IMG/VR virus record: IMGVR_UViG_3300042270_000679
Source: an uncultured virus (IMG/VR IMGVR_UViG_3300042270_000679)
Lineage: Duplodnaviria > Heunggongvirae > Uroviricota > Caudoviricetes
DNA: 34,777 nucleotides
Direction: 5' to 3' (one strand)
Positions 15,677-34,777 of the stretch are shown here, in pieces (positions within the stretch are counted from its first letter, which is position 1; every line of letters starts with the position of its first letter). Under the pieces are notes generated by a model. It worked only from the letters and a program-made list of their open reading frames with translations. It had not been told where the DNA came from and ran no database searches. Made by a program: the position numbers and the translations under genes.

Positions 15677-15698
15677 AAGAAGCTGAAGTTTGTTTGTG

Positions 15699-15963: not shown

Positions 15964-16014
15964 CTCTGAAAGCACACAATAGCAAGTCAATTCAGAGATA
16001 TAAATGCACCAAAT
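15964..16014 (-). promoter_or_regulatory. Promoter-like repeat, copy A
   Basis: 38/51 ungapped identity (hand count) to 17212-17262; contains CTTGCTA as a -35-like box. Confidence 0.55.
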
Positions 16015-16036
16015 ATCGTTATGAAAGGGATGTGTT

Positions 16037-16213
16037 TTACGCCTCACCGGTTAGGATGAAATGGGCATATTCTTTGCGGTTTTCTTCGAGGTACACGACC
16101 AGCTCATAAAAACCCATGTCGTTTGCGATACGCTGCACCGTTACCACATCGAACATATTCGTCAGACCGGTGTCGCGTATGGCCAAGATCTGCTTTCGCA
16201 CCTTATCGGTCAT
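16037..16213 (-). CDS. DUF5049-like small protein, 58 aa
   Basis: MTDKVRKQILAIRDTGLTNMFD..YAHFILTG signature. Confidence 0.75.
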   Translation of the reverse strand: MTDKVRKQILAIRDTGLTNMFDVVTVQRIANDMGFYELVVYLEENRKEYAHFILTGEA

Positions 16214-16436
16214 CGTCGCACCTCCGGCAAAGGTCCTCGCCATAGACCACGTTAAGTCCGCTACCGTTGTCCCAGCTAACCATGATGCTTGCTGTGTCAT
16301 CCACACCGGTTACGGTGCCTTTGGTGCCTATGGGCGGAGCCTGCACATCATCCATGCGAAGAAGCTCAACGCGGCAACCGGTCGGAAACTGGTGGCGGAT
16401 GCGCTCGACTACTTCTTTATTCGGAAATCTCATCAT
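16203..16436 (-). CDS. DUF4314-like protein
   Basis: FPTGCRVELLRMDD..PIGTKGTV..VDD..VSWDNGS.L..GED signature; AAGGAGG RBS. Confidence 0.8.
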   Translation of the reverse strand: MMRFPNKEVVERIRHQFPTGCRVELLRMDDVQAPPIGTKGTVTGVDDTASIMVSWDNGSGLNVVYGEDLCRRCDDDR

Positions 16437-17172: not shown

Positions 17173-17211
17173 ATTCAAAACCTCCTGTCGTTTTGGTATG
17201 TACATATATCA

Positions 17212-17262
17212 CTCTAAAGGCACCTTATAGCAAGTGATTTTCGAGAAATATATGTGCCAAAT
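17212..17262 (-). promoter_or_regulatory. Promoter-like repeat, copy B
   Basis: Second copy of the 15964-16014 element, directly upstream of the accessory cassette. Confidence 0.55.
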
Positions 17263-17289
17263 CGAATTAGAGGAAGTGGCTGTTTATCA

Positions 17290-19687: not shown

Positions 19688-19688
19688 A

Positions 19689-20240
19689 TCATTTTCCTTT
19701 CCGGGCGGTTAAGAGCCGCTCCATCACATCATCCTGCGGATTCACTCCGCTGTATTCGCCGGTACAGTTTTCTTTTACGATCTGAAAAATCTCCATCCAC
19801 AGACGGTTCGTTTGGTTCATGTAGTTCTGGCCCATCGCCACATAGGGGCTTTGGATTGCATTGCCCGTAGTGGGGTGCTTCGCCAGAAAGCCGTACTCAG
19901 TGACTGCTTCCTCGCACTGAATCCAGCGGGCTACGCTCATGGCGTATCGCTCTAAAAGCTGTGGCGATACAAGCACCGCACAGCCACGCTCGTTCAGCCA
20001 CGTCCATGTGGATTTATATATTTCGCTCGCGACGAGTGTCTTACCGTCCTTCTGGACAGCTTCGAGCATCTTTGCTGGTTCCGGCATCACTTGACCGTTA
20101 AGGTCTGCCGTATCGGTAAACTCCATCACGGTCAGTTTTCTGCCGCCGGGATTACCTTCGGCTATTTTGTCAGCTAATGGCTTCTTTTTTGCGCCTGCGC
20201 CGACACGAGTGCCGCCACGATTGGTACCGTCTTTTGCCAA
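19689..20240 (-). CDS. terS: Terminase small subunit (P27 family)
   Basis: MAKDGTNRGG..GAGAK, KHPTTG..SPYV, DDVMERLL; follows the HNH/cos region; TTG start after AAGGAGGTG. Confidence 0.85.
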   Translation of the reverse strand: MAKDGTNRGGTRVGAGAKKKPLADKIAEGNPGGRKLTVMEFTDTADLNGQVMPEPAKMLEAVQKDGKTLVASEIYKSTWTWLNERGCAVLVSPQLLERYAMSVARWIQCEEAVTEYGFLAKHPTTGNAIQSPYVAMGQNYMNQTNRLWMEIFQIVKENCTGEYSGVNPQDDVMERLLTARKGK

Positions 20241-20304
20241 ATATCACACCTCCTTTTCGGGTAGGGGCTATACCCCCGTTTGAATATGCGTTTTTCAACA
20301 CGAA

Positions 20305-20315
20305 GCCCGACGCCG
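20305..20315 (-). other. Candidate cos (cohesive end) site CGGCGTCGGGC
   Basis: GC-rich core flanked by T/A runs in the HNH-terS gap, the usual location for 3'-cos sites. Confidence 0.4.
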
Positions 20316-20334
20316 CTGTCCGTTAAAAAAAGTT

Positions 20335-20703
20335 CTAGAGATTTGACCGCCCCCACCGGTCACCGCTCTCAGCAGTAATTCTGGAATGGCATGATTTGCA
20401 AAGGGCCATCAAGTTACTCGTTTCATTGCCGCCACCCATTGAGAGCGGCAGGATGTGGTGTACCTCTTCAGCCGGTGTGAGCTTGCCTTGCTTCAGGCAC
20501 TCTTCGCAGAGAGGATGCGCCTTGATGTAGCGGTCACGGATACGCTTCCAAGCACGACCGTAGCGTTTGTTGGACTTGGGGTCTCGCTCGTACTGGTTGT
20601 ACTGTTTGTCCACAACCTTTTGATGCTCGGCGCAGTATTGCTCACGCTCAGCGAGCCGACCGCAGCCGGGGTAGGCGCAGGGACGCTTTGGTTTATATGG
20701 CAT
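20335..20703 (-). CDS. Packaging-associated HNH endonuclease (gp74-like)
   Basis: CEEC..EVHHI..NLMALCKSCH motifs; directly upstream of terS. Confidence 0.92.
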   Translation of the reverse strand: MPYKPKRPCAYPGCGRLAEREQYCAEHQKVVDKQYNQYERDPKSNKRYGRAWKRIRDRYIKAHPLCEECLKQGKLTPAEEVHHILPLSMGGGNETSNLMALCKSCHSRITAESGDRWGRSNL

Positions 20704-20724
20704 GGGTTCACCTCCCTTTCGGGC

Positions 20725-20761
20725 ATAAGAAAAGCCCCACAGGATTTCTCCCGCGAGGCTT
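20725..20761 (-). terminator. Terminator-like hairpin before the HNH gene
   Basis: AAGCCTCGCGGGA-GAAA-TCCTGTGGGGCTT followed by TTCTTAT. Confidence 0.6.
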
Positions 20762-20775
20762 CGCCTATACTTTCT

Positions 20776-20826
20776 ATACTACCAGTATACAGTACTTGGC
20801 TATGACATCAACTCTCTTTTACTCTC
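20776..20826 (-). promoter_or_regulatory. Candidate activator-dependent late promoter
   Basis: TG-G-TAGTAT extended -10 at 20784-20776; GAGAGT direct repeats 10 bp apart at 20826-20821 and 20816-20811. Confidence 0.45.
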
Positions 20827-21235
20827 CACTTTCGTTGACTACGACTTTTCTTAAAGCCCAGTCACGCATTCGGTAAGTATGCTGGATGCTGTAGCCCATC
20901 TTGGCAGCAACTTCCTCCCATGTGCATCCGCAAAGGAAACGAAGTTCAAGTAGCGTCTGGTATTCCTTATTGTCCACGGCTTTGATGCTGGCAACAATCT
21001 GTCGTTTGATGTCTACCAGCCGGTGAATGTCACGATCAATTTCTGCCTGAAGATCTACAATCTTCACAACAGCATCCGCCATAGAAGATATGCTGTGGTT
21101 AGGATTGCGAGGCATGTCGCTGATGGTAGATGTGCATTTAGTGGCCAGCTCACTTAAGGAAGCAATCTGCTCTAATTTGCTGTCAATGCGAAGGTCCAGC
21201 CGGTAGGCTTGGCTCAGAAAATCCAGAGCTTTCAT
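20819..21235 (-). CDS. RinA/ArpU-like (DUF1492) late transcriptional activator, 138 aa
   Basis: MKALDFLSQAY start; C-terminal sigma-4-like HTH LLELRF..TWEEVAAKMGYS; last gene before the packaging module. Confidence 0.8.
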   Translation of the reverse strand: MKALDFLSQAYRLDLRIDSKLEQIASLSELATKCTSTISDMPRNPNHSISSMADAVVKIVDLQAEIDRDIHRLVDIKRQIVASIKAVDNKEYQTLLELRFLCGCTWEEVAAKMGYSIQHTYRMRDWALRKVVVNESGE

Positions 21236-21236
21236 G

Positions 21237-21518
21237 TTAGCCCACCTCCATATTTCTAACTTGACGCAGCAGAGTATCGCCATCCAAATTGGAAAGCAAT
21301 TCAAACCACCCAGAATGGAAGAAGCGTTCAACATCATCGCACTCACCTTCATTCTTAATAATATTTTCCCTCAAGATGCGCTTCCGCTTATCCTTCATGG
21401 CCTCCTCAGTATCAAGGTCTGGTGTGTGCGGGTGCCGCTTTAGGAAGTGAATTGCTTCCCGGTAGTCCTTGACTGCTTGGACAATAATTGCATTTACTAA
21501 ACTTTCATAGGGTTCCAT
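21237..21518 (-). CDS. Conserved hypothetical phage protein, 93 aa
   Basis: MEPYESLVNAIIVQAVKDYR..ERFFHSGWF signature; GGAGGT RBS. Confidence 0.75.
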   Translation of the reverse strand: MEPYESLVNAIIVQAVKDYREAIHFLKRHPHTPDLDTEEAMKDKRKRILRENIIKNEGECDDVERFFHSGWFELLSNLDGDTLLRQVRNMEVG

Positions 21519-21569
21519 AATCGTACCTCCGATAAATTTTGATTTCTCTCGGATTGGCACGGATTGTCT

Positions 21570-22943
21570 TTAGTTGACTCTCATTTGCAGATCAGCTTTG
21601 ACAGCATCTATTAGCGCCGACTGGCTTTTATCCTTTAAGTAAAGAGCCCGCAAAACGCGTTCATCAATAGTGCCTTTGGTAACGATGTGCTGCACCACAA
21701 CCGTTTCAGCTGTTTGGCCTTGTCTCCAAAGCCTCGCATTTGTTTGTTGATATAACTCTAATGACCAGGTAAGACCGAACCAGACAATGCAAGAGCCACC
21801 AGCCTGAAGATTTAAGCCATGACCTGCAGATGCGGGATGAATTAAGCCAACCGGTATTTCCTTGTTGTTCCACCTTCGAATACTTTCAGCGGTATCCAAC
21901 TTAGAAAATGAGACCTTTATGGTTTGAAGCTTTTCTACGATTCTTTCGTAGTCGTGCTTATACCAATAGGCTACAAGAATCGGTTTTCCGGCGGCTGCCT
22001 CAATAATATCCTCTAAGGCATCCAGTTTCTGATGATGGATGACCTCGGTTCCACCACTGTCGATATAAATGGCGCCATTGGCCATCTGGCAGAGTTTGTT
22101 GGAAAGTGCTGCAGCATTTGCCGCTGTTACCTCACCACCAGGCAGCTCCAGGACGAGGTCTTTTGCTAATTCGTCGTAGCGCTTTGCCTCTTTTTCAGAA
22201 AGCATGACCGCATATTCACTGCTGATCAGCTCAGGCATCTTCAGGTAATCCGTCGACTTCATAGAAATCGTAATGTCGGAGATTTTCTGGTAGATGCTTA
22301 GCTCCGCTCCGGGAAGTGGCTTGTAGCTGAAAATGATCTGGCCATTTCTCTTATCCGGCATAAAGTAGTTACTTCGAAATGCGGTGATGAACCTTCCAAG
22401 CCTAGCGCCCAGGTCCAGCAATTTAAACTCGGCCCATAAATCCATTAGGCCATTGCTGCTTGGTGTTCCTGTCATCCCAATCATGCGTTTAACTTTTGGA
22501 CGCACCTTCATCAGTGACTTAAAGCGCTTGGCCTGATGATTTTTGAAGGAAGAAAGCTCATCGATAATAACCGTATCAAAATCAAATGGAAGCCCACTCT
22601 CATCAATAAGCCAGCAAAGATTCTCACGGTTGATGACATAGATATCTGCTGCAGCTTTTAACGCCTTAATCCGTTCAGCCGTATTTCCTACTGCAACAGA
22701 AACAATCAGATCGGATAGATGATCCCACTTTCCAATTTCAGCAGGCCAGGTATCTCTTGCCACTCGAAGCGGAGCTACCACCAACACCTTATGAGCTTCA
22801 AAATAATCAAACAGTAGGTTATTGATTGCAGTAAGGGCGATGCTTGTTTTTCCTAAGCCCATATCCAAAAGTACTGCCGATACCGGATGGGATTCGATGT
22901 AGTTTATCGCATACTTTTGATATTCATGTGGATTGTACTGCAT
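21570..22943 (-). CDS. SNF2-family DEAD/DEAH helicase
   Basis: DMGLGKT, IIDELS, TGTP, GHGLNLQ, QTNARLWRQGQ motifs. Confidence 0.95.
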   Translation of the reverse strand: MQYNPHEYQKYAINYIESHPVSAVLLDMGLGKTSIALTAINNLLFDYFEAHKVLVVAPLRVARDTWPAEIGKWDHLSDLIVSVAVGNTAERIKALKAAADIYVINRENLCWLIDESGLPFDFDTVIIDELSSFKNHQAKRFKSLMKVRPKVKRMIGMTGTPSSNGLMDLWAEFKLLDLGARLGRFITAFRSNYFMPDKRNGQIIFSYKPLPGAELSIYQKISDITISMKSTDYLKMPELISSEYAVMLSEKEAKRYDELAKDLVLELPGGEVTAANAAALSNKLCQMANGAIYIDSGGTEVIHHQKLDALEDIIEAAAGKPILVAYWYKHDYERIVEKLQTIKVSFSKLDTAESIRRWNNKEIPVGLIHPASAGHGLNLQAGGSCIVWFGLTWSLELYQQTNARLWRQGQTAETVVVQHIVTKGTIDERVLRALYLKDKSQSALIDAVKADLQMRVN

Positions 22944-23205
22944 CTAAAATCCCTCCAATCTGACTCTCGTCGTCTAGTATGAATACTGAAAATCCTAATC
23001 CTCTAAGAAGTTTGTGCCTTGCCATCTGTAATGGACGCGGGCGTTTGCTAGTGGCCTTTACTTCAACAAAGGCTATCTTTCCATCAGGCATTAGAAGGAT
23101 TCGATCCGGCATACCATCAAAGCCTGGAGATACAAACTTGACTGCCAGCCCACCACGCTTTTTTGCTTCCAAAGCTAACTTCTTTTCAATCTCTTTTTCT
23201 CTCAT
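22924..23205 (-). CDS. VRR-NUC domain nuclease
   Basis: EKEIE..GMPDR..FVEVK..Q motif. Confidence 0.9.
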   Translation of the reverse strand: MREKEIEKKLALEAKKRGGLAVKFVSPGFDGMPDRILLMPDGKIAFVEVKATSKRPRPLQMARHKLLRGLGFSVFILDDESQIGGILDAVQST

Positions 23206-23228
23206 TGTCGTACCTCATCAAAATTTTA

Positions 23229-23334
23229 TGGTGGTGGTCGTTATACTCATTTCATAAAACCCCCTATAGGCTATTTTTTACTTAAAAAACTCTCTATAGG
23301 GACTTTTTGTATATGAGTATAACGAGGGTCACCA
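23229..23334. repeat. 106-bp imperfect palindrome, candidate replication origin
   Basis: Perfect arms TCGTTATACTCAT (23238-23250) / ATGAGTATAACGA (23313-23325), inner CTATAG pair and T/A runs, centre 23281-23282. Confidence 0.8.
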
Positions 23335-23345
23335 GTGACAGTCGG

Positions 23346-25604
23346 TTATGGTTGATTCAGAAAATCTTCATCTTTTACACGTACTCCATAGATGAAAGAG
23401 CCACTCTTTGTCTTTTTACGAGTAAAGCCCGCGAGTTCAACTGCTGCATAAAAATCGGTCGTGCTTCTCGTATACTCACCATTTCGTGAACAGTAATTAC
23501 GATATTCTTGATAGAAGGCACCGGACTTCTGCGAATAGTCCGGACCGATTTCGCAGCAATCCTCAAGGAAGTTTGCCATCCAGTCATTGTTCTCTCTATA
23601 GGTATCAATCGCCTTACGAACACACTCAGGCGGCGATAAGTGAAAGTTCTTACGTATTGCCTTCATCGCTCCCTCAACAATCCAGCTAAGGATATAAGGA
23701 CCTGCCTCATTGAAGAGGTGGTCAGCATAATTTTTCATATCACTGCTACCTTCGATCTTTGCATCGAATGGAATGACAATCATACGACGCCACGTTCCTG
23801 CATCATTGGCCCCTACACGGGGTAAATGGTTTGTATAAAGCACAAGTGTATGCGAAGGGGTGAACCTGAATGGGTCTTTGTACTTTTTTTCAGCTGTAAT
23901 CTCGTCTGTAGAACAAAGTTGTTTAATGATGGAAGTATTAAGACGCATGCCCTCCTCAAGCTCTGCCGCGATGATGAGACGCTTGCCCTTAAGCTCTGCC
24001 ATTTCAGGCTTCACGTTTCTACGACAACCTACCGTTAAAGTGTCTGCAGACAAGGAACCGGAATAAGTACCAAGCACCCTGGATATGGTATTCCAGAAGG
24101 TGGATTTCCCATTGCGCCCTTCCCCATAAGCAATGATGATTGCCTCCAGGTAAACCTTACCGATGGCAGCAAGGCCAACAATCTGTTGGACGTATTCGAT
24201 AAGCTCAGCATCATTACAAAAGAAAGTGCGAAGAGCTTGTTGCCAGATATCCTTGCCCTCTTCACCAGGCTTACTATTGGTCTGCTTCGTAATGAAGTCA
24301 GCGGCTTCTGGAAGCCTACTTTCACCCGTTTTAAGATCAATCGTTGCACCGGGTGTATTAAGTAAAAACTCATCTTTATCTAACTCTGAAACGCTGTGCT
24401 GCAGCATCGGTTTTGCCGCCTGAAGAGCTGCCATCACATATTTCATATCGCGACGCTTCAGCACAAACTTCTTATAAATAGTCGCCGCGGTATACAACCC
24501 ATAAGCTGTTTGCTGTTCTTCGTTCATATCTCCCAGGCCCTTGCCGGTAATGACAGCTATTTTTTCTAGACCCGCTTTAATACAGGATTCCAGTGTTGAT
24601 GCAACTTGTGATTCAGCGTCAGCAAGCTGTTCATCAAGGAACTCCTCCATAGCACCGACGGCCTTCTGCTTTGACTCCACCCATTTTTCACCGTCATACC
24701 TTAAAAAATCGGTAGCCTCGGTGAAGCAAAGCTCTGCATCATATTCGCGAGCAAGCACTTTGGCCTGTCCAATATCGGAGTAGTCTGTGGGTTTTAATGA
24801 AGCGTCACTAAAATCTTTGTTAAAATCCTCCGGTGCTACATATCCTTCTTGATCCTGAACCTTTTTAGCAAACTTCACCGCGCTATTCCATATAGTAGTC
24901 AGTTCACTCTCCTCGATTGATGTCTCGCACTTTTCTGCTTCCTTTAAGAAAAGGTCATGCGCTTTATCTCCAATACCATAACGTTTCAAAACTCTGCCTG
25001 CGTAATGCGACAGGGTTTTATTACGTCTGCCTGCTGGAATAACGGAGTTGTTTGTCACAGCTTCGTCAAAATCCTCGTCGACATCTTCAAGCACATCAAG
25101 GACTGAGAGCCAGCCTTCATGCCAGATCACTTCGCCCGTCTCAGCACCATAAATGAACCGGGCTGCATCGAGTGCATTATCATCGAAGAAGGTAAACTGA
25201 GCATGGATTGCTTTCTTTAAATTGGCATACTTATCTGCATTCGCTACGACGTCAATTGAGAAGTAGACATGAAACTTTGGCCTTGCTGTTTTACCGTCCT
25301 TCGGAAGCATATTGTTGCGGCTAGGTGCAATTGCATAGGATATATCCGGCATCAGTTCATCAAGAGTAGCCGGCGTTATCCATTCAGCAGGATCATCGCT
25401 TTGCTCGTTATCACAATCCATAACGATAACATCAGACTTGATGAAGTTATCTGCACTGCGGTAGTTGTTCGCATACTCCGCACAAACGTGGTCTACCTTC
25501 ACCGCTTCCTTCAGTTCTTCCACCGAGGTAACCACCCGTTTATTTGGATAGAGGCAGTTCTTCTGATTGCCGGTGCAGTTTGCGGTACAGATCGTTAATT
25601 GCAT
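23346..25604 (-). CDS. P4-family primase/helicase (primase N-terminus, PriCT, D5-like SF3 helicase)
   Basis: DCDN and KFHVYF primase motifs, GRRNKTL PriCT, GEGRNGKST Walker A, TNHLP, WRR motifs. Confidence 0.93.
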   Translation of the reverse strand: MQLTICTANCTGNQKNCLYPNKRVVTSVEELKEAVKVDHVCAEYANNYRSADNFIKSDVIVMDCDNEQSDDPAEWITPATLDELMPDISYAIAPSRNNMLPKDGKTARPKFHVYFSIDVVANADKYANLKKAIHAQFTFFDDNALDAARFIYGAETGEVIWHEGWLSVLDVLEDVDEDFDEAVTNNSVIPAGRRNKTLSHYAGRVLKRYGIGDKAHDLFLKEAEKCETSIEESELTTIWNSAVKFAKKVQDQEGYVAPEDFNKDFSDASLKPTDYSDIGQAKVLAREYDAELCFTEATDFLRYDGEKWVESKQKAVGAMEEFLDEQLADAESQVASTLESCIKAGLEKIAVITGKGLGDMNEEQQTAYGLYTAATIYKKFVLKRRDMKYVMAALQAAKPMLQHSVSELDKDEFLLNTPGATIDLKTGESRLPEAADFITKQTNSKPGEEGKDIWQQALRTFFCNDAELIEYVQQIVGLAAIGKVYLEAIIIAYGEGRNGKSTFWNTISRVLGTYSGSLSADTLTVGCRRNVKPEMAELKGKRLIIAAELEEGMRLNTSIIKQLCSTDEITAEKKYKDPFRFTPSHTLVLYTNHLPRVGANDAGTWRRMIVIPFDAKIEGSSDMKNYADHLFNEAGPYILSWIVEGAMKAIRKNFHLSPPECVRKAIDTYRENNDWMANFLEDCCEIGPDYSQKSGAFYQEYRNYCSRNGEYTRSTTDFYAAVELAGFTRKKTKSGSFIYGVRVKDEDFLNQP

Positions 25605-26047
25605 TTTGTAACCTCCTCCAACTCCTCGGTAAAATAGCGGATCGTCATGCGACGCTTCTTGGCTTTATCAATCTCGCGCTGCATACCATTTGTAATCGTC
25701 TCGCCAAACACCCACAGTTCATTGCATTTACCTAAGAAGACTATGTCCATGAACAGTGCAAGCTCTCGTTCTTCCGGATCATCATCTGAAAGATACAAAG
25801 GTAATAGTAGGTGTGGTGCAAAGGCAATGGCATCTCTCTCCATAACAGCGAAGCGGCTATAAAGCTTGGCCCTTTCCGTATTTTTCTCTACATCACCTGC
25901 ATACGGCGAGCAGATATACACGAGCGGTTTGAAGGTCTTGTTTTCTTTTTTAATGTTGGTCAGTGCCTGGTATGCGGTAGGATCGGAATAACCTTCACTG
26001 TTCTTCTTGTCCACTCCGCCGGTGCCGTATTTCATTTGTTCGTTCAT
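25595..26047 (-). CDS. DUF4406 / nucleoside deoxyribosyltransferase-fold protein
   Basis: VYICSPYAG, APHL, CNELWVFG..GMQREI motifs; KNSEGYSDPTAY N-terminus. Confidence 0.75.
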   Translation of the reverse strand: MNEQMKYGTGGVDKKNSEGYSDPTAYQALTNIKKENKTFKPLVYICSPYAGDVEKNTERAKLYSRFAVMERDAIAFAPHLLLPLYLSDDDPEERELALFMDIVFLGKCNELWVFGETITNGMQREIDKAKKRRMTIRYFTEELEEVTKCN

Positions 26048-26227: not shown

Positions 26228-26274
26228 AGTGAAGGACATGAAAAATGTGTGGCCCGAAAAAATCAAAATCGTTT

Positions 26275-26307
26275 TTCGTTCAAACCACACAAAACTGTCC
26301 TGGGACT
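26275..26307 (+). promoter_or_regulatory. Bipartite motif, copy 3
   Basis: TTCGTTCA-AACCACACAAAAC-TGTCCTGGGACT, 80 bp after copy 2. Confidence 0.75.
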
Positions 26308-26349
26308 ATTAGAGAGGGAATAACGCCTCTCGGGAAAGGAGGTAACAAC

Positions 26350-26517
26350 ATGCAGACACAGACCCCTGCAGAGGCTTCGAAAGACCAGCAGCTTGATGAA
26401 GAACTTGCTGACACTCTCACAGCCATCAGCGTTGTTTCCAAGAGACTGGCCCAGAAAATCAAGGCCTTGTCTGCAAAGGAACAAGAAAAAAAAGAAGGAG
26501 GTACTCCAAATGAGTAA
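26350..26517 (+). CDS. Small helical hypothetical protein, 55 aa
   Basis: AAAGGAGGT RBS before ATG 26350; LTAISVVSKRLA motif. Confidence 0.7.
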   Translation: MQTQTPAEASKDQQLDEELADTLTAISVVSKRLAQKIKALSAKEQEKKEGGTPNE

Positions 26518-26827
26518 GATGAGTGAACTGAATCAGGTTCTGTCTGAACTAAAGGACTGCGGACAAACCCTCATGAACATTGCGGACTCGATTACTGAGC
26601 TTTTCTCTAGCACATCGGCCATGCACGAAGCACCCGCTCCACCGAGAGAGGAACCGAAGCCAGCGTATTCGTTTGTGGAGATTCGGAAGAAGTTTGCAGA
26701 AATGTCCAGAGCCGGACACACAGATGCGCTTAAGGATCTGCTTAGAAAACACGGTGCAGACAAGCTCTCCAGCGTAGACCCGTCACAGTATGCCGCATTG
26801 CTTGCGGATGCGGAGGCAATTCAATGA
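26510..26827 (+). CDS. Conserved phage replication-module protein, 105 aa
   Basis: MSKMSEL start after AGGAGGT; LLRKHGADKLS.VDP..Y..LL.DAE motif; precedes DUF2800. Confidence 0.75.
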   Translation: MSKMSELNQVLSELKDCGQTLMNIADSITELFSSTSAMHEAPAPPREEPKPAYSFVEIRKKFAEMSRAGHTDALKDLLRKHGADKLSSVDPSQYAALLADAEAIQ

Positions 26828-27960
26828 GCGTAAAACACGCACTGCTTTCCGCATCGTCGGCACACCGGTGGATTGCGTGTCCACCATCGGCTCTGCTTAG
26901 TAAGAAGTTCGAAGATTCTTCCAGCAGCTTTGCGCAGGAAGGCACCGATGCCCACACTCTCGCACAGTACAAGCTTGAAAAATTACTGGGACTTCCTACA
27001 AAGGACCCGACTGAATCACTAAGCTTCTACGATGAGGAAATGAACGATCACGCAGAAAATTATGCGGCCTTTGTATTAGAACAAGTTGAGAAAGCAAAAG
27101 AAACCTGCGTCGATCCTCAGGTACTTATTGAGCAGAAGCTCGATTTTTCAAAGTATGTCCCAGAAGGGTTTGGTCATGTGGACTGCCTGATTATCGCAGA
27201 TGGCACCCTTACCGTAATTGACTATAAATACGGACTTGGGATTAAGGTTTCAGCGGAAAGAAATCCGCAGATGTTCTGCTATGCGCTTGGCGGCTTGGCA
27301 CTATTTGATGGGATCTACGACATCGACATTGTTCGCCTGGTCATCTATCAGCCGCGCAGAGAAAACATTAGCGAGTACAGCATCTCAAAGAGCGAACTCA
27401 TCCAGTGGGCTGAGGACGTCTTGTCTCCTACTGCTGAGCTTGCCAGCAAGGGCGAGGGCGAATACAAAGCAGGCGAGCATTGTCGGTTCTGTAAGGCCAA
27501 AGCAACTTGTAGGAAGCGTGCCGAACACAACCTGGAACTTGCAAAGTACGACTTTGAGGTACCGGCCACGCTCGATCACGATGAGATTGCAGCCATCCTG
27601 ACAAAAGCAGATGAACTGGTTTCCTGGGTAAGCGATGTCAAGGAATATGCACTGAAGGAAGCGCTAAACGGTACCAAGTTTGAAGGTTTCAAATTAGTCG
27701 CCGGTCGGTCCAACAGGAAATACACAGACGAAGCTGCCGCAGCTGATCTCGTTATTGCAGCCGGTAAAGACCCATACGAAAAGAAACTGCTCGGCATAAC
27801 CGCTATGACAGCACTCCTCGGCAAAAAGGCATTTGAGGATATTCTCGGTGGCCTAACCTATAAGCCGCCTGGAAAACCGGTCCTTGTTACCGCTGATGAC
27901 AAGAGGCCTGAATTTAACTCAGCATATGAAGATTTTGATGAAAATCAAGGAGGAAATTAA
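26824..27960 (+). CDS. DUF2800 Cas4-like PD-(D/E)XK nuclease
   Basis: HALLSASSAHRW..CPPS, GTDAH, GHVD..IDYKYG, Q..CYA, CRFC..C cysteine cluster. Confidence 0.88.
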   Translation: MSVKHALLSASSAHRWIACPPSALLSKKFEDSSSSFAQEGTDAHTLAQYKLEKLLGLPTKDPTESLSFYDEEMNDHAENYAAFVLEQVEKAKETCVDPQVLIEQKLDFSKYVPEGFGHVDCLIIADGTLTVIDYKYGLGIKVSAERNPQMFCYALGGLALFDGIYDIDIVRLVIYQPRRENISEYSISKSELIQWAEDVLSPTAELASKGEGEYKAGEHCRFCKAKATCRKRAEHNLELAKYDFEVPATLDHDEIAAILTKADELVSWVSDVKEYALKEALNGTKFEGFKLVAGRSNRKYTDEAAAADLVIAAGKDPYEKKLLGITAMTALLGKKAFEDILGGLTYKPPGKPVLVTADDKRPEFNSAYEDFDENQGGN

Positions 27961-27962
27961 TC

Positions 27963-28526
27963 ATGACAAAGACAGTTAATCCATTGAAAGTAGTTACTGG
28001 CCCTGATACCCGCTGGAGCTATGTGAATGCGTGGGAGCCCAAATCCATTAATGGAGGCACGCCCAAGTACAGTGTATCTCTCATTATCCCTAAGTCCGAC
28101 ACGAAGACCATCGAGAAAGTTAAAGCTGCAATAGAGGCAGCCTATCACGAAGGTGAAAGCAAGCTCAAAGGCAATGGTCGCAGCGTACCGCCTCTTACAA
28201 CCCTTAAGACCCCGCTTCGTGATGGCGATTCGGAACGTCCTGATGATCCCGTTTATGCTAACGCATATTTTGTGAATGCCAACAACAGCTCAGCCCCTGG
28301 CATCGTGGATGCCGACCGCCAACCTATCCTCGAGCGCTCTGAGATTTATTCCGGTGTTTATGGTCGAGCCAGCGTGAACTTCTACGCATTCAACACCAAC
28401 GGAAATAAGGGAATCGCGTGTTCTCTTAATAACCTTCAAAAGATCCGTGATGGCGAGCCTCTTGGCGGTAAGTCAAACGCTGAAGATGACTTTGCCACTG
28501 AGGATGATGACGATTTTCTTTCCTAA
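27963..28526 (+). CDS. DUF2815 single-stranded DNA-binding protein
   Basis: PKYSVSLIIPK, PLRDGD, YSGVYGRAS, LNNLQK..DGEPLGG, acidic tail ending DDDDFLS. Confidence 0.88.
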   Translation: MTKTVNPLKVVTGPDTRWSYVNAWEPKSINGGTPKYSVSLIIPKSDTKTIEKVKAAIEAAYHEGESKLKGNGRSVPPLTTLKTPLRDGDSERPDDPVYANAYFVNANNSSAPGIVDADRQPILERSEIYSGVYGRASVNFYAFNTNGNKGIACSLNNLQKIRDGEPLGGKSNAEDDFATEDDDDFLS

Positions 28527-28595
28527 CAGGTAACGGTCAATCGGGGTGGTAGAAACCCTACTACCCTAGACAATCAAAGAAATGAGGTAAATCAA

Positions 28596-28718
28596 ATGGA
28601 AACCATTCTTTTTATTGAGGCTATTACTCTGTTCGGCGTGTTTATCATTGGGTCCATGTTCTGGGTCACAACTGAAATTTGGAGCACTATTAAGAAATAT
28701 AAAAAAGAAAAACTTTGA
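28596..28718 (+). CDS. 40-aa single-pass membrane microprotein
   Basis: GAGGT RBS; METILFIEAITLFGVFIIGSMFWVTTEIWSTIKKYKKEKL*; below the ORF-track cutoff. Confidence 0.6.
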   Translation: METILFIEAITLFGVFIIGSMFWVTTEIWSTIKKYKKEKL

Positions 28719-28734
28719 TAATTTTTAATTGCTT

Positions 28735-28762
28735 GGGCGGTGGCACTCTGCTGCCGCCCTTT
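28735..28762 (+). terminator. GC-rich hairpin upstream of the HNH/polymerase genes
   Basis: GGGCGGTGGCA-CTC-TGCTGCCGCCC followed by a short TTT. Confidence 0.45.
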
Positions 28763-28789
28763 AAGATAATAAGAAAGGACTATTGAATT

Positions 28790-29317
28790 ATGTGTAATGA
28801 AATTTGGAAAGATATCCCCGGTTACGAGGGGGAATATCAAGCAAGCACATTTGGTCGTATAAAGAGTGTCAAGCGAAAAGTAATAAGCAAAAACTGGTAT
28901 ACAGGTAATCCATTCTATCGTACTGTTCCAGAACGTATTTTGAAACCGGGCAGGTTTTGTAAAAGCGGACATGTCTCCGTCGTATTACGCAAAGGCACCA
29001 GCGGAAAACCCGTACATCAGTTAATATTGAGAACATTTATTGGAGAAGTGCCTCAGGACATGGAGGTTCTTCATATCAACGGTAACCCAACAGACAATTG
29101 CTTATCTAATCTGCGATACGGCACCAGAAGAGAAAACATCCTAGATGTTTACCGGCAGGGTAACCGATGGCGAAAACTCTCCACTGATGATGTCGAAGCC
29201 ATACGATTTGGACTTTATTGCAGAATTCAAGGTTCTGAACTTGCTGTAATGTATGGTGTTTCGCAGTCTATAATCAGCTCAATAAAGCACGGGAGGATAT
29301 TCGCATGGTTGCCATAA
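28790..29317 (+). CDS. NUMOD4-HNH homing endonuclease
   Basis: EIWKDIPGYEGEYQASTFGRIKS (NUMOD4); VHQLI..VLHING..DN..NL.Y...EN (HNH_3); C-terminal HTH-like segment. Confidence 0.9.
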   Translation: MCNEIWKDIPGYEGEYQASTFGRIKSVKRKVISKNWYTGNPFYRTVPERILKPGRFCKSGHVSVVLRKGTSGKPVHQLILRTFIGEVPQDMEVLHINGNPTDNCLSNLRYGTRRENILDVYRQGNRWRKLSTDDVEAIRFGLYCRIQGSELAVMYGVSQSIISSIKHGRIFAWLP

Positions 29318-31254
29318 CCTCTTTGTCTTTGGACTTGGAGTCCTTTTCCAGCATCAATCTTACCAAAGCAGGAGTTTATAGGTATGTCGAGTCGCCGGAT
29401 TTTGAGATCTTATTATTCGGTTACAGCGTGAATGGAGGCACTGTTCAGGTCGTTGACGTGTCATGCGGCGAGAAGATACCCGGTGAGATTATTAATGCCC
29501 TAACCGATGAAACCGTAATAAAATGGGCTTTTAATTCAAATTTTGAGCGTGTTTGCCTGTCTCGTTACCTTGGCTACCCCACCGGTGAATACATGAATCC
29601 ATCTTCATGGCGCTGCACCATGGTATGGTCTGCTTATATGGGCTTACCACTTTCCCTTGAAGGTGTAGGTGCAGTGCTAAACCTCGGTGAACAGAAGCTA
29701 AAAGAAGGCAAGGATCTCATCAGATATTTCTGTACTCCATGCAAGCCTACCAAGGTAAATGGTGGCCGAACTCGTAACTTACCTGAACATGATATGGCCA
29801 AATGGTCCTTATTTAAGAGATACAATATTCGAGATGTTGAGGTGGAACAGGCTGTTAAGAAGCGCCTAGAAAACTATCCGGTACCTGAGTTTATATGGGA
29901 GGAATACCATTTGGATCAGGAGATTAATGATAGAGGAATACTGCTTGATATGGGTGTTGTTAAAAATGCCATTACATTTGATGAACGCTCTAAAAAAGAA
30001 CTAACCACTGCAATGAAGGAGCTTACCAACCTTGATAATCCAAACAGCGTTATTCAGGTAAAACAGTGGCTTTCTGATAGCGGAATAGAAACCGAGTCTC
30101 TTGGGAAAAAGAATGTCGCAGCCCTTATAAAGACGGTGCCGGAGGATCAACGTGATGTGCTTCTACTTCGCCAGCAGCTTGCAAAAAGCAGCATCAAAAA
30201 GTATCAGACCATGCAAAACACGGTCTGCTTAGATGGCAGGGCTCGTGGCATGTTTCAATATTATGGTGCTTCACGTTCTGGACGCTGGGCAGGCAGGCAT
30301 ATACAATTACAAAACCTTCCTCAGAACCATCTCCCTGATTTGGAAGATGCTCGGTCCCTTGTTAAGCTCGGGGATTATGATGCCGTAAAACTACTCTACG
30401 AAGATGTACCGGATACCCTCTCTCAGCTTATCCGCACTGCTTTTATTCCAAAGCCAGGATATAAATTTATCGTGTGCGACTTTAGCGCCATCGAGGCTAG
30501 AGTACTGTCCTTCTTAGCCGGGGAACAATGGCGATTAGATGTATTTGAAAGCGATGGTGATATCTACTGCGCTTCTGCTTCTGCTATGTTCCACGTACCG
30601 GTTGAAAAGCATGGCGTGAACAGCCATCTTCGTCAAAAGGGCAAAATCGCAGAATTGGCTCTTGGATATGGCGGCAGCACCGGTGCCCTCAAGGCTATGG
30701 GTGCACTAGACATGGGCCTTACTGAATACGAACTACAGCCGCTGGTCGATTCTTGGAGAGCGTCAAATCCTAATATTACAAAGCTTTGGTGGGATGTTGA
30801 TAGGACGGTCAAAGAAGCCGTTCGCTTACGAACACATACTAAAACGCACGGCATTAAATTCTACTACCAAAAGGGAATGCTATTTATTGAACTTCCTTCC
30901 GGAAGGAGGCTCTCCTATGTAAAGCCCAAGATCGAACCGAATCAGTTCGGTGGTGAGTCTGTTACCTACGAAGGCACCGGAAACACTAAGAAATGGGAAC
31001 GCATCGAAAGCTATGGACCAAAATTCGTTGAAAATATCGTTCAAGCCATAAGCAGAGATATTCTGGCCTACGCCATGAATACACTCCGTCACTGCTTTAT
31101 CTGTGGACATGTCCATGACGAGCTAATTATCGAGTCCAGCATGGGTGCTTCCCTTGAAGCCGTTTGTGAACAGATGGGAAGAACACCTCCTTGGATCAAA
31201 GGTTTAGCACTTAGAGCCGATGGCTATGAAACCATGTTTTATAAGAAAGACTAA
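29305..31254 (+). CDS. Family A DNA polymerase (phage type, 3'-5' exonuclease plus polymerase)
   Basis: DLES ExoI, AFNSNFE, YNIRDV, SGRW..QNLP, DFSAIEAR, RQKGKIAELALGYG, ENIVQ, HVHDE motifs. Confidence 0.95.
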   Translation: MVAITSLSLDLESFSSINLTKAGVYRYVESPDFEILLFGYSVNGGTVQVVDVSCGEKIPGEIINALTDETVIKWAFNSNFERVCLSRYLGYPTGEYMNPSSWRCTMVWSAYMGLPLSLEGVGAVLNLGEQKLKEGKDLIRYFCTPCKPTKVNGGRTRNLPEHDMAKWSLFKRYNIRDVEVEQAVKKRLENYPVPEFIWEEYHLDQEINDRGILLDMGVVKNAITFDERSKKELTTAMKELTNLDNPNSVIQVKQWLSDSGIETESLGKKNVAALIKTVPEDQRDVLLLRQQLAKSSIKKYQTMQNTVCLDGRARGMFQYYGASRSGRWAGRHIQLQNLPQNHLPDLEDARSLVKLGDYDAVKLLYEDVPDTLSQLIRTAFIPKPGYKFIVCDFSAIEARVLSFLAGEQWRLDVFESDGDIYCASASAMFHVPVEKHGVNSHLRQKGKIAELALGYGGSTGALKAMGALDMGLTEYELQPLVDSWRASNPNITKLWWDVDRTVKEAVRLRTHTKTHGIKFYYQKGMLFIELPSGRRLSYVKPKIEPNQFGGESVTYEGTGNTKKWERIESYGPKFVENIVQAISRDILAYAMNTLRHCFICGHVHDELIIESSMGASLEAVCEQMGRTPPWIKGLALRADGYETMFYKKD

Positions 31255-31293
31255 AAAAGCCCCTGAGGGAACTTAATCCTTCAGAGGTCTTTG
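31253..31293. terminator. Probable bidirectional terminator between convergent pol and SIR2-pAgo genes
   Basis: A-run, CTGAGGGA-ACTTAA-TCCTTCAG stem, then CTTT. Confidence 0.6.
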
Positions 31294-31633
31294 GATGTAC
31301 AATTATTCGTTTGCTTCAATTTCTTTAAGTGTTACTCCCTTAGTCTCCGCTTGGCGCACAACCCATAAAATAATTTATACTTTACTTTATTCAACCATTG
31401 CGATTCAGCCAGGAATACACCTATCTTACATGCTGAGTCATCATACATCATTCCAAGCCCAAAGCTTAAACGCAGCTTCCTGCAGCGTTGAGAAAAATAT
31501 CTGCTGAACGCGCTAATGAGGTCTGCCTGAACTGTACCAAGTTCGGCGGCTGACGTTACGGTATGGCGCGTTATTTTACCCTAATAAAATAATCTGCTTA
31601 AACAATCTCCAATTAGTGCAGGATTTCATAGTC

Positions 31634-34600
31634 CTACATAAAATATCTGTAGTCATAGATTGACCCTTCATACTGGGAAAGCAATCTGCCGATTCTTGCT
31701 ATCTCATTAGATGAATCAATAGTACATGGCAATTTTGAATACAAACCGAAACTGTTCCAGTTCATTTTCGACAATCCAAGAATTTCAGTAGCAATTTGTG
31801 ACATCGTACCATTACCATGGTGTTTAACAATTTTTAGCGGGAGAGGTATAGTCTTGCCTCCCTGAATATATCGATAATTCGGATTCCGCACCGATGGTGC
31901 GATACCGTGAGTATACAAATACATCGTATTGTCATTCAGAGGGAAACACAAGCCCCGGCGAACAGGAAAACCATCAATCGCGTCCATATTTCGAGTAAAC
32001 TCAAAACATTTCAAGTCATCTTCAAGTGTAATTTCCAAAAGGTCTATGTCTTTAATACCCGCACTTGATAGGCTTGTTACTAAGCCCTTGATTTCCTCAC
32101 GACGGAACGGTGTCCGCTTGTGAATAACTACCCGCTTGGGCATTTCAGAAAACGATTTGTAAAACAACTCCTTAATATTTAGGCCAAGACGATAAGCCTC
32201 ATCTTCTGACAAATAGGGGTTTTTCTTACGGTCAAAGGTACAGTCATCAATTTTGGATAGTTTATATTTCATTCCTTGCCCGTCTGCCGAGTAAACATGG
32301 CTACAACCAACCACCACGTTGGAACTACTCCCGGTTCGGTTAAGGCTGTAACCAATACCTGCAAAAGCCGTATCATTGTTAATGCCGGAAACAACCCAAG
32401 GTATACGACTCGACTTCACATATATTGCTAAAGACAAAGCCCACATTATCTGACAGTTCATATCGCTTTCTAATGTTTTCTCTCGCACAAATTGAGTAGC
32501 AATATTTCTTTGTGCAGCATATGCCTTAACATAGTCGTGCAAATCAAAGTTTTCGTTTTCGTCAACATAACCAGTTAGAGGATCGTATTCTTTGGGAATG
32601 TAAATTAATGCGACATCCACAGATGAAGCACTTAGTCGGTCAAGACTTTGGCAAAGCGACTTTCCGAGTTGAACAGCGGTATCATTAATACTGTGTGACT
32701 GCGAAACCGTTACATCTAACCATGTATACGTATTGGGTGTAGGTATGTACAAATTTGTTTTGTACGCCTCAAAAAAGCCTGAAAATGGGATTACATATTC
32801 TAAGTTATAATTCACGCCTTGCCGACTGTTCAACTGATTAAGAAAGCTGTAAAATCTCTGATTATGTGCTGATGGGCATATTACACCCAATGAAATCGAT
32901 GAACGTAGGACATTGTTGTTAAGCGAATAGTCAAAAGGTGCGTTGTTTATCAGTCCACGCATAGGGTGAAAATCAGTCACCATACGTTTTTGGGCTGGGT
33001 TAAAGAATATCAAGTCGGTATCGCGGCATTCCGTACCCCTAAATACAATCCGCTTTTCGCTTATCGTTTGAGGTAGTCTAACTTGATATTGGGAGCCGGT
33101 CGTTGCTCCAAGGATTGCGCTATTGGGGCGAATATTGAATACAAAACTCGTTGCTGAGTTTGGTGGGAAGGTTGTCTGTATCCCATTTGTCCCGAACAGA
33201 CGGTTAACCCATTTGTCGATGTATTCATAAACATTTAAGTTTGGCTTGCCCGAATTCACTTCGGCAGTAAAACTGTCGGCGAATTGCTTTTTCTCTTCAC
33301 GGCTTAGGTTGATACCCGAATCGTACATAAATGTCGGTGTCGCCGTTACATAGGTGTACTTCGTATCAAAAAATAGGGCGAAACGAACACCTTTGTATCC
33401 TATTATTGTATGAATGCCTACGCGCTTATTGATTTTTTGAGTTGTGTCCCAAACCTTATCCTTGGAATAAGGTAACGAATTAACTGTTCCAACTATCGCA
33501 GTAACCGTTTTGAGAAGCAGTTCGTTAAACGAACCATTCTTTATTGAATTTTCGCGTGTAAAAGGAGTCAAAGATAACTCGCCAATTATCCTGCCGCTGC
33601 AGAGATTCTGTATTCTGTCTTTTTCACCCCAGGCATATAAAAAACCGTTAAGAGGTACAGCCATAACACCATTAGAGGCCAGATTTTTACAGAAATCCCA
33701 CGGTCTTTCGCCTTGATTGTATTTAACTTCAAATTGGTAACAGTTTTTAGGGAATGTAATTGGAAAGATATTAGTATTCGTTATTTTTCCAATTTTTGCT
33801 GTCGATATTTCAAATTTACTGGCGGTTTCAGAAACAGGAGATCCTAACTCCATTTTAATCGCGTCAATTCTGCGCAAAAAATCAGCTTCGTCACTCATGC
33901 AATGGCGCGTCAGGCTGTAAACTGCTTTATCGAATCCATCAGTAGGCACATAATAGGCACTACGCCCGCTTTCATTTACCAATTGGATTAAATCTATTAC
34001 TGGAGCAGGGGCATTGTTTCCATAGCCACACCAAAATAATTTACCATTACCGTTTGTCTGATAAGCCGAAGCCAAAGCAGTCATAAGTGAATTGTCACGA
34101 CCACTATAACCGATGACAAGCAAATTTCGATTTGCCAATTCGTGACTTATTGTGCTAACGAACACGTCATTTTGCGTATCCAACTCAGATGTTGTGTTTT
34201 TCAATGCACCGTACTTGTAATCACCGTGGAGGGCAATGCAGAGTAATTCACCATCAACATCGCCGCGATAAACGCGATCAGATGTCTCGGAAGTCACTTC
34301 TATAGGACTTAGATTGTATTTATGAGCGCATTTCAACATGAGACCATCAAAATTAGTAGTCCAGACGCTCTTAAATAAGCCGTTCTCGGCAAGCAAAGCT
34401 ATAAGATGATAACCAATGCTCGGATTTACTCCAGCTACCAAATGCTGAAAATACTTGCGACGGTCATCGGGAATGGGATATGCTTTTTCAGCATAAAACG
34501 AGTATTCTGCGTCAGAACCGTTAGCAGGAAACCCACCCTTATTGTCGAGCCAACGCTGAATAGCACAGCGGACACTGTCTACTTTGATATTGCTATATGT

Positions 34601-34777
34601 GTCTACAAAGGATGTATTTTGCGACAGGAATATCTCTCGTTTCCACTCCCAGATGCAGTCCGAAGCAGACGGAACACCAGATTCAACTGATGCTCCAGCA
34701 CCTAATAATAGCGAATGTGGAGTATCTTTATTCTGTTTAAACGAGCGCAACAGCTCGTCGAACGTCAAAGTCTGCAT
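31634..34777 (-). CDS. Fused SIR2-APAZ-short prokaryotic Argonaute (single-chain SPARSA-type NADase defence protein)
   Basis: SIR2 motifs GAGAS, TTNFD (N142), LHGD (H184), GYSGRD; MID LHDYVK..TQ..YVK; PIWI with degenerate tetrad (GIGYS, VIHKR); C-terminal YDYRYFM. Confidence 0.93.
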   Translation of the reverse strand: MQTLTFDELLRSFKQNKDTPHSLLLGAGASVESGVPSASDCIWEWKREIFLSQNTSFVDTYSNIKVDSVRCAIQRWLDNKGGFPANGSDAEYSFYAEKAYPIPDDRRKYFQHLVAGVNPSIGYHLIALLAENGLFKSVWTTNFDGLMLKCAHKYNLSPIEVTSETSDRVYRGDVDGELLCIALHGDYKYGALKNTTSELDTQNDVFVSTISHELANRNLLVIGYSGRDNSLMTALASAYQTNGNGKLFWCGYGNNAPAPVIDLIQLVNESGRSAYYVPTDGFDKAVYSLTRHCMSDEADFLRRIDAIKMELGSPVSETASKFEISTAKIGKITNTNIFPITFPKNCYQFEVKYNQGERPWDFCKNLASNGVMAVPLNGFLYAWGEKDRIQNLCSGRIIGELSLTPFTRENSIKNGSFNELLLKTVTAIVGTVNSLPYSKDKVWDTTQKINKRVGIHTIIGYKGVRFALFFDTKYTYVTATPTFMYDSGINLSREEKKQFADSFTAEVNSGKPNLNVYEYIDKWVNRLFGTNGIQTTFPPNSATSFVFNIRPNSAILGATTGSQYQVRLPQTISEKRIVFRGTECRDTDLIFFNPAQKRMVTDFHPMRGLINNAPFDYSLNNNVLRSSISLGVICPSAHNQRFYSFLNQLNSRQGVNYNLEYVIPFSGFFEAYKTNLYIPTPNTYTWLDVTVSQSHSINDTAVQLGKSLCQSLDRLSASSVDVALIYIPKEYDPLTGYVDENENFDLHDYVKAYAAQRNIATQFVREKTLESDMNCQIMWALSLAIYVKSSRIPWVVSGINNDTAFAGIGYSLNRTGSSSNVVVGCSHVYSADGQGMKYKLSKIDDCTFDRKKNPYLSEDEAYRLGLNIKELFYKSFSEMPKRVVIHKRTPFRREEIKGLVTSLSSAGIKDIDLLEITLEDDLKCFEFTRNMDAIDGFPVRRGLCFPLNDNTMYLYTHGIAPSVRNPNYRYIQGGKTIPLPLKIVKHHGNGTMSQIATEILGLSKMNWNSFGLYSKLPCTIDSSNEIARIGRLLSQYEGSIYDYRYFM

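Follow-up and report, generated by a model that had tools for sequence, protein, structure and literature searches.

This work concerns a 34,777-nucleotide stretch of DNA from an uncultured virus (IMG/VR record IMGVR_UViG_3300042270_000679), which we call the window, and the long gene with which it ends. That gene, on the minus strand at 31634-34777, encodes a short prokaryotic Argonaute (pAgo) preceded in the same chain by SIR2 and APAZ domains, the single-chain form of the SIR2-associated short pAgo systems known as SPARSA. We believe it is probably an abortive-infection gene that forms the terminal cargo of a phage operon combining immunity genes with a type I restriction-modification (R-M) system. 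The argument starts from things that are observed: the integrity of the gene, the homology of its domains, its kept catalytic and guide-binding residues, the purifying selection upon it, the structure of the operon in a closely related contig, and the recurrence of that layout in relatives. By window position, the gene and its parts are as follows.

31634..34777, minus strand: single-chain SIR2-APAZ-MID-PIWI coding sequence (SPARSA-type short pAgo), 1047 amino acids (aa) plus stop, recognized by Pfam, PADLOC, PDB chains and fold.
33878..34777, minus strand: SIR2 NADase domain, about residues 1-300, with GAGAS at 26-30, N142, H184 and D228; matched by residues 1-305 of the GsSir2 chain at a profile E of 1e-37.
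32981..33877, minus strand: APAZ region, about residues 301-599; PADLOC SIR2-APAZ models reach residue 554, and there is a match to a predicted fold.
31634..32980, minus strand: MID-PIWI, residues 600-1047, with the pocket Y726/H747/K751/Q762/K788, and with S811 and R888 at two catalytic Asp positions; GsAgo chain at E 3e-57, and a profile alignment to TtAgo.

The open reading frame (ORF) runs for 1047 codons without interruption, and its ATG is the last three bases of the window. We believe M1 is the true start because the orthologues pulled from 29 related loci all stay open for 1040-1051 codons and all share the N-terminal start M-Q-T-L-x-F-D-E (29/29 in each case). The initial annotation of this DNA, made by a reader who had only the letters, described a 1047-aa ORF with intact SIR2 motifs, and every one of these is exactly in place: GAGAS at residues 26-30, TTNFD at 140-144 (containing N142), H184 within LHGDY, and GYSGRD at 223-228. 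It also read the protein as a single-chain SIR2-APAZ-short pAgo of the SPARSA type. This is fully supported by the PADLOC pAgo model PDLC02384, which takes in residues 2-1047 at model positions 3-1030 of 1030 with 1344 bits, and by both chains of the SPARSA complex of Geobacter sulfurreducens (Gs). In phmmer searches residues 600-1047 match the Piwi chain of that SIR2-APAZ/Ago complex (8in8_C) at E 3e-57 and residues 1-295 match the Gs Sir2 chain at E 7e-30; a 16-sequence profile of the window protein improves these to 4e-67 for Ago and 1e-37 for Sir2. The fused PADLOC model 'Aga_SIR2-PNTD1-PNTD2' gives 615 bits, and the PADLOC SIR2-APAZ models span residues 42-554. Profile and structure searches for the three domains, which the same annotation had suggested as a check, found all of them: Pfam SIR2_2 at residues 137-250 (2.3e-9), the APAZ fold, and Pfam Piwi at residues 741-1031 (9.6e-5), the last of these under its gathering score.

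The APAZ half of the Gs Sir2 chain is out of reach for the 16-sequence profile, so residues 1-620 were folded with AlphaFold2 using a 24-sequence alignment (mean pLDDT 73, pTM 0.48). Foldseek ranks the SPARSA Sir2-APAZ chains 8y80_E, 8jl0_A and 8jkz_A at the top for this model, at E 2.5e-28 to 1.3e-26 over 602-610 aligned columns. Against chains in which the APAZ part alone is resolved (8y7z_A, 8in8_B, 8k87_B) the model reaches a target TM of 0.61-0.67 with a root-mean-square deviation of 4.7 Å. By its predicted fold the middle region is an APAZ domain.

The residues that matter most can be read directly against the Gs proteins. In the phmmer alignment N142, H184 and D228 stand at GsSir2 N142, H186 and D230. 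The first two of these are catalytic in GsSir2 according to the available text of PMC11452484, and a GsSir2 D230A mutant loses defence according to that of bioRxiv 10.1101/2021.12.14.472599. On the Argonaute side Y726, H747, K751, Q762 and K788 stand at Y149, H166, K170, Q181 and K207 in the MID pocket of GsAgo; the role of GsAgo H166 in the pocket for the guide 5'-phosphate is treated in PMC10474274. The C-terminal tail, ...YDYRYFM, resembles the end of GsAgo and leaves a free C-terminus. Among the window protein and its 29 orthologues G26, G28, S30, N142, D144, H184, D228, K751, Q762, K788 and also R888 are invariant (30/30), while residue 726 is Y in 29 and F in 1; H747 and S811 are invariant in the 16 sequences of the profile. 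The PIWI domain was aligned with hhalign to Thermus thermophilus Ago (TtAgo, taken from NC_005838.1), whose catalytic residues we take to be D478, E512, D546 and D660. D478 falls on S811, D546 falls on R888, and E512 and D660 fall in gaps; the probability of this alignment is only 59%, which weakens the comparison. As aligned, the PIWI domain is without the DEDX catalytic tetrad. The view in the initial annotation of a middle region in the APAZ position, MID pocket residues and a PIWI domain missing the DEDX acids is backed by the fold, by the GsAgo alignment and by S811 and R888.

The gene is under purifying selection, with dN/dS of 0.10, 0.13 and 0.08 against its counterparts in the related loci L057, L001 and L002. 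We read the SIR2 NADase as apparently active and the short pAgo fused to it as nuclease-dead, in a protein that is intact and under selection, because the ORF is open, the residues are kept, dN/dS is about 0.1 and the PIWI Asp residues are replaced. One could argue instead that the gene is a decaying or inactive passenger and no longer a defence system, since some relatives are found in visibly decayed prophages (L002, and possibly the viral contig G002, in which TerL is split in two frames). We regard this as very improbable: the ORF is unbroken, the catalytic and guide-binding residues do not vary, dN/dS lies at 0.08-0.13, and every one of the 29 extracted orthologues is full length.

The best view of what should lie upstream comes from L057, an IMG/VR contig arranged in the same way. 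Identity with the window is 96% for the pAgo DNA and 98% for its protein, 88-91% for the replication genes and 81% for the polymerase. On the pAgo strand L057 carries the 3' part of a gene, then hsdM, hsdS, hsdR, the gene of a YgjP-like metallopeptidase, and pAgo. The first, partial gene aligns with the C-terminus of an M78 (ImmA/IrrE-like) protein of locus L070 at E 4e-13, and the gaps from this immA-like gene to pAgo are 14, -8, 1, -4 and 12 bp. The operon runs convergently into the phage polymerase. By comparison with L057, a type I R-M operon very probably ends with the pAgo of the window, a point that the initial annotation missed. In L001 the pAgo is 93% identical and belongs to a non-phage defence island, yet 146 bp from the 3' end of ygjP still precede its ATG, and from this we take the ygjP-pAgo junction to be ancestral in this subclade. 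That remnant (L001 9857-10000) bears a 1-nt deletion. Also in this island are two UDG-family genes, DUF2726 and a NOV_C protein of 1526 aa. A metagenome scan with the HsdM of L057 found nothing closer than 77% except a 1-kb piece, and found the pAgo in 0 of 80 loci.

The head of the operon can be placed with the help of loci from which the pAgo is absent. In L070, L071, L072 and L167 a helix-turn-helix (HTH) repressor gene, an ImmA-like gene and hsdMSR-ygjP make up one block; L068 has the same HTH/ImmA-like start, and its available stretch ends inside hsdM. The HsdM proteins of this group are 67-71% identical to that of L057. The block is divergent from a phage early operon of p144, exonuclease, single-stranded DNA-binding protein (SSB) and polymerase, and by its gene order it sits at the position of the prophage immunity operon. 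The polymerase match of L070 comes in two pieces.

It is important to distinguish two claims, that the gene belongs to such an operon and that the operon belongs to the phage. The initial annotation called the gene probable prophage cargo, and from the comparison of loci we think this quite probable. In L057 the pAgo lies between the immA-like gene and the type I R-M genes on one side and the phage polymerase on the other. In L181 the order is HTH, ImmA-like gene, cargo and convergent polymerase (69% identical), with divergent small early genes on the opposite side. The cargo differs there: after an hsdM remnant comes an LlaJI-type R-M system (N4/N6 and C5 methylases, AAA_5, LlaJI endonuclease). 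L181 looks like a case of a cargo slot downstream of immA in which the cassette has been replaced. The hsdM remnant itself, at 2971-3723, is a 250-aa N-terminal piece that is 68% identical to the HsdM of L057. In G002, a 25.9-kb viral contig whose TerL is split into two frames, a 59%-identical pAgo and a type I R-M system are flanked by genes of a related phage, with TerL on one side and amidoligase, ParB-methyltransferase and TerS on the other. L057, L181 and G002 all have phage genes on both sides of the slot or the pAgo; the upstream side of the window is beyond its sequence. Two complete phages are also informative. G004 (a 54.9-kb record with CheckV completeness of 100%) is a complete related prophage with an operon of HTH, ABC-3C, type III R-M and pAgo; that operon stops 390 bp short of the host tmRNA gene, and smpB and rnr come next. 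The complete phage NatCom_3357 has an MmeI-type R-M gene in the equivalent accessory region. The only candidate attachment (att) site in G004, a 14-nt repeat of the tmRNA 3' region (E 0.15), was rejected because it falls within a phage gene that is sigma-like and precedes two serine recombinases. Long repeats are not known to be required by serine integrases.

The cargo claim thus gains comparative support from L057, L181 and G002 and falls short of proof, because the lineage of the window and L057 yielded neither an att site nor an integrase nor any host flank and because the window ends at the start codon. The point at issue is the junction between the polymerase and the pAgo, which has the following features.

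31495..31633: 3' flank travelling with the pAgo gene, inside the 96% identical block that the window shares with L057.
31258..31494: junction segment without homology between the window and L057, containing most of the orphan ORF p70.
31295-31507, plus strand: orphan ORF p70, 70 codons, no family match.
31257..31274, minus strand: terminator-like hairpin with T-run for the pAgo strand, abutting the polymerase stop codon (consensus scan).

The alternative is that the pAgo and its R-M operon lie outside the phage, in a host-chromosome defence island or a remnant of some other integrated element, with the prophage ending between 31254 and 31634. Several observations weigh on that side, and we gather them here. 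Window and L057 cease to be homologous over 31258-31494; identity is 96% in the pAgo block and 81% in the polymerase. In the sequencing run X13, compared over window positions 29906-34777, just 0-2 differences per 0.4-1 kb separate the pAgo pieces from the window, against 94 in 1005 positions for the polymerase piece (about 91% identical); by this comparison the pAgo block and the phage backbone have different histories. The break and the X13 pattern also fit a conserved host island beside variable prophages. In L097, L111 and L124 a large serine recombinase/integrase comes directly after the polymerase, so in those loci the polymerase end is the prophage end. The GC content steps from 0.47 in the phage to 0.41 in the pAgo, and the two are convergent. 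Close orthologues are known in non-phage settings (L001, the conjugative element L004 and the chromosome in L006), chromosomal defence islands among them. Neither contig reaches past the operon: the window stops at the ATG and L057 stops inside the immA-like gene.

The arguments on the other side seem stronger to us. The block is headed by an immA-like gene, which in L070, L071, L072, L167 and L181 accompanies an HTH repressor in the phage switch region. No other repressor was recognized among the phage genes of the window: PHROGs found neither repressor nor integrase there, and no repressor was named in 147-31507 by PHROGs (36 chosen ORFs) or by Pfam (two of the unassigned). The layout of immunity genes, cargo and convergent polymerase recurs in L181 despite a polymerase only 69% identical and a different cargo. 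No sigma, SHOCT or serine-recombinase remnant was found at window 31200-31700, and the window holds no tRNA, tmRNA or Rfam family. We judge a location outside the phage to be unlikely, and from these comparisons, with proof still wanting, the likely verdict is that the pAgo is the terminal gene of an immunity/R-M operon in a Heliusvirales-like temperate phage.

The junction also appears in other sequencing runs, which we count on the side of cargo. In two more wastewater runs, which may not be independent of the source sample, contigs join polymerase to pAgo with zero differences, and a landfill run covers 31274-31904. These runs were compared as Logan contigs, which bridge the junction and are silent on excision, strand and expression; in RNA-labelled runs no more than 0.10 of the sampled words were present. 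In L057, too, the consensus scan finds a terminator-like hairpin for the pAgo strand hard against the polymerase stop codon, at 11377-11397, with a different sequence. It finds no plus-strand terminator-like site between the polymerase and the pAgo gene in window 31000-32000, and none for the polymerase strand in L057 10800-11600. As for p70, it has no family, is not conserved in L057 and has no homologue in the fetched loci that were compared.

The phage beside the gene falls into two parts.

1..26047, minus strand: remainder of a Heliusvirales-like siphophage, in map order endolysin 5' part, holin, tail, head, TerL, amidoligase, ParB-methyltransferase, TerS, HNH, late regulator, SNF2 helicase, VRR-NUC, primase-helicase and nucleoside deoxyribosyltransferase.
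26245..31254, plus strand: phage early/replication arm, with p90, p144, PD-(D/E)XK-type exonuclease, Gp2.5-like SSB, HNH endonuclease and family-A DNA polymerase.

In the direction of transcription the minus-strand genes begin with nucleoside deoxyribosyltransferase, primase-helicase, VRR-NUC, SNF2 helicase, late regulator, HNH, TerS and phrog_1569, and continue with ParB-methyltransferase, amidoligase, TerL, portal, protease, major capsid, connectors, tail and holin. The family-A polymerase at 29305-31254 (plus strand) ends 380 bp from the pAgo stop and is convergent with it, just as the initial annotation had it when it placed the pAgo next to a phage replication module. All nine marker functions of Ca. 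Heliusvirales, as listed in the available text of PMC11283538, were found by PHROGs in the window phage, and its TerL is 82-86% identical to those of the NatCom phages, of which NatCom_3357 (PV036416.1) is filed under Ca. Heliusvirales. Our assignment is based on PHROGs functions and TerL identity. The same text describes the group as predominantly temperate.

The early arm (p90 to polymerase, 26245-31507) is inverted in the window relative to G004 and to NatCom_3357 (L242), which is either a further point against our placing of the operon or neutral. In L097, L111 and L124 the arm comes after the endolysin. From its positions, this module appears to change place and orientation within the phage group. 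No repeat joins the two ends of the inverted arm. The deoxyribosyltransferase gene and p90 diverge from a 198-bp region, in and around which two repeats lie: an inverted one of 38 nt at 26071-26108 and 26295-26332, whose arms are 76% complementary, and a direct one of 16 nt, containing GTCCTGGGAC, at 26213-26228 and 26293-26308. They may serve the early switch as operators, or they may be what the inversion of the arm left behind. The HNH endonuclease at 28790-29317 (plus strand) follows the SSB gene and runs into the start of the polymerase. L124 and L057 have it as well and L097, L111 and L136 lack it, and by this pattern it looks like a mobile homing endonuclease. At the other edge of the window the first 48 codons of an amidase-type endolysin lie at 1-145 (minus strand), starting at 145 right after the holin, so the lysis cassette is cut by the window edge.

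The wider family is found in many settings. A scan of GTDB gave 56 loci, mostly in Clostridia and some in Bacteroidota. We surveyed the flanks of 50 loci, up to 10 kb, for R-M genes with models built from these loci's own R-M proteins; the partial matches L040, L044, L050, L051, L053 and L055 were left out, and the six loci used for training necessarily match. In 17 of the 50 the flanks contain co-oriented type I R-M genes, ending at most 1.1 kb upstream in 11, and in L046 and L049 the pAgo lies between hsdS and hsdR. Other contexts are the conjugative element of L004 and tyrosine-integrase islands in L008 and L027. In L007, L013 and L052 the pAgo lies in chromosomal islands beside a TrmA/RumA-like methyltransferase gene, with an HD-domain gene before it in L007 and L013. 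The onward defence genes differ among these three (RhuM and Wadjet JetA; a TIR protein and an Eco57I-like methylase), and from this arrangement the site looks like a chromosomal defence hotspot.

Genes of the window phage family occur near the pAgo in five of the 56 genome loci (L002, L003, L016, L027 and L055) and in 3 of the 4 viral loci. By its gene content L002, from a metagenome-assembled genome of Evtepia, appears to be a relative of the window phage in which much has decayed but the R-M/pAgo island survives. A partial match to the phage SNF2 helicase lies at L002 1983-3013, overlapping the hsdM start, and an IS256-type transposase, a serine-recombinase fragment and a tail-protein fragment lie at 17116-19991. 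In viral collections the fused protein is rare. Among 50,697 GenBank phage records none has it at full length, the best being a 7.3-kb fragment at 58% coverage and 36% identity, and in IMG/VR four contigs carry it (L057-L060) along with a 75-residue fragment. Megablast gave no matches for the gene against phages or for 20000-34777 against E. coli genomes. The virus record G001 is a 6.4-kb fragment that does not include the pAgo gene.

What would such a gene do? NADase activity, guide type, expression in lysogens and membership of the phage genome are all inferred, largely by analogy. Like GsSir2/Ago and PgSir2-Ago, the window protein would load short 5'-phosphorylated guide RNAs. The loaded protein would recognize complementary DNA of an invading high-copy replicon or phage, and recognition would lead to oligomerisation, which in the Gs system is tetramerisation. 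The oligomer would hydrolyse NAD+, and the infected cell would be stopped or killed. The pAgo would most likely be the last gene of an operon of immA-like gene, hsdM, hsdS, hsdR, ygjP and pAgo, and that operon would occupy the slot for accessory genes in a temperate siphophage of the Ca. Heliusvirales type from anaerobic Clostridia. In lysogens it may be co-transcribed with the prophage immunity genes, giving layered protection against other phages and plasmids, with restriction acting first and NAD+ depletion second. A different idea is that the protein mainly serves the phage: it could work as a module for addiction or stabilisation, or could strike at rival prophages and satellites once the phage is induced. 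R-M systems can act as addiction modules, and the pAgo is linked to one of type I; it also recurs on prophages, on the conjugative element L004 and on the integrase-bearing islands L008 and L027. All characterised SPARSA systems are abortive-infection defences, though, and this idea overlaps with our preferred reading rather than excluding it; we give it very little weight as an explanation of its own.

If the gene is indeed phage-borne defence, then after induction the phage has to live with a detector of high-copy foreign DNA just as it copies its own genome; the initial annotation drew this implication too, and proposed silencing on induction or an inhibitor among the small ORFs. Lytic read-through from the convergent polymerase arm could silence the pAgo operon, and this is conceivable because a terminator-like site was found for the pAgo strand only, in the window and in L057. 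The terminator scan and the facts about p70 are compatible with such antisense transcription and show nothing more. As a candidate inhibitor p70 is without support, since it has no family and no homologue in the compared loci. A more speculative and rather unlikely reading is that a temperate Heliusvirales-like phage has built an Argonaute system for abortive infection into its immunity operon (immR/immA, type I R-M, ygjP, SPARSA) and tolerates it through read-through silencing or an unrecognised anti-SPARSA factor. If true, either route would be a new self-tolerance mechanism for prophage-borne Argonautes. If the cargo placement holds, the phage would be a natural system for asking how a prophage avoids triggering its own DNA-sensing suicide module. 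Argonaute immunity could then spread with SPARSA and R-M cassettes through a single accessory slot of a phage order that is mostly temperate and widespread among Clostridia of gut and wastewater; the word 'Argonaute' does not occur in the main text of the paper that defines the Heliusvirales (PMC11283538). The gene itself adds nothing new on the SPARSA mechanism, and its setting matters modestly.

How does this compare with known systems? Fused SIR2-APAZ-pAgo proteins are already an established group, to which the window gene adds a further, ordinary member; Ryazansky et al. (2018) treat it as group 2 in the available text of bioRxiv 10.1101/366930. The nearest likeness by description is PgSir2-Ago of Paraburkholderia graminis, which also has Sir2, APAZ and short pAgo in one polypeptide. 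Zaremba et al. report that this single-chain protein protects about 400-500 fold against lambda-vir and SECphi27 (bioRxiv 10.1101/2021.12.14.472599), and as far as the available text goes it is the one tested member of the fused group, with anti-phage activity. It comes from a proteobacterium, whereas the window protein belongs to a Clostridia and phage setting, and the word 'prophage' does not occur in the available text of that preprint.

The closest structural relative is GsSir2/Ago (SPARSA of G. sulfurreducens; PDB 8in8, 8jkz, 8jl0, 8y7z, 8y80, 8y82). Both of its halves are homologous to the window protein, and the two share the positions N142, H186 and D230 (N142, H184 and D228 in the window protein), the MID pocket, the ...YDYR-F/Y-FM tail and the APAZ fold. 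They differ in that GsSir2/Ago is made from two overlapping genes (587 and 473 aa) and the window protein is one chain of 1047 aa, and the relation of the two APAZ domains is detectable by fold and not by sequence. SPARTA (TIR-APAZ with short pAgo; 8fex, 8ifk, 8qlo) works by the same logic, in which a guide-loaded dead Argonaute senses DNA and the NADase is turned on by oligomerisation. Its MID-PIWI chains match the window protein at E 1e-13 to 1e-14 and its TIR-APAZ chains match the modelled APAZ part, but its effector is TIR instead of SIR2 and it has two chains.

The genomic setting has precedents as well. Ryazansky et al. list lambda-repressor-like HTH proteins and HsdS among pAgo-operon proteins (the available text of bioRxiv 10.1101/366930); a short pAgo in a type I R-M operon is like the R-M/pAgo operon of the window lineage. 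What sets this lineage apart from other R-M-embedded pAgos is that the operon is headed by an immA-like gene, joined by an HTH repressor in relatives, and appears to lie inside a Heliusvirales-like phage. The window phage resembles the gut and wastewater siphophages of Ca. Heliusvirales (available text of PMC11283538) in its TerL, its nine markers and its gene order; compared with NatCom_3357, it is the early arm from p90 to the polymerase that runs the other way.

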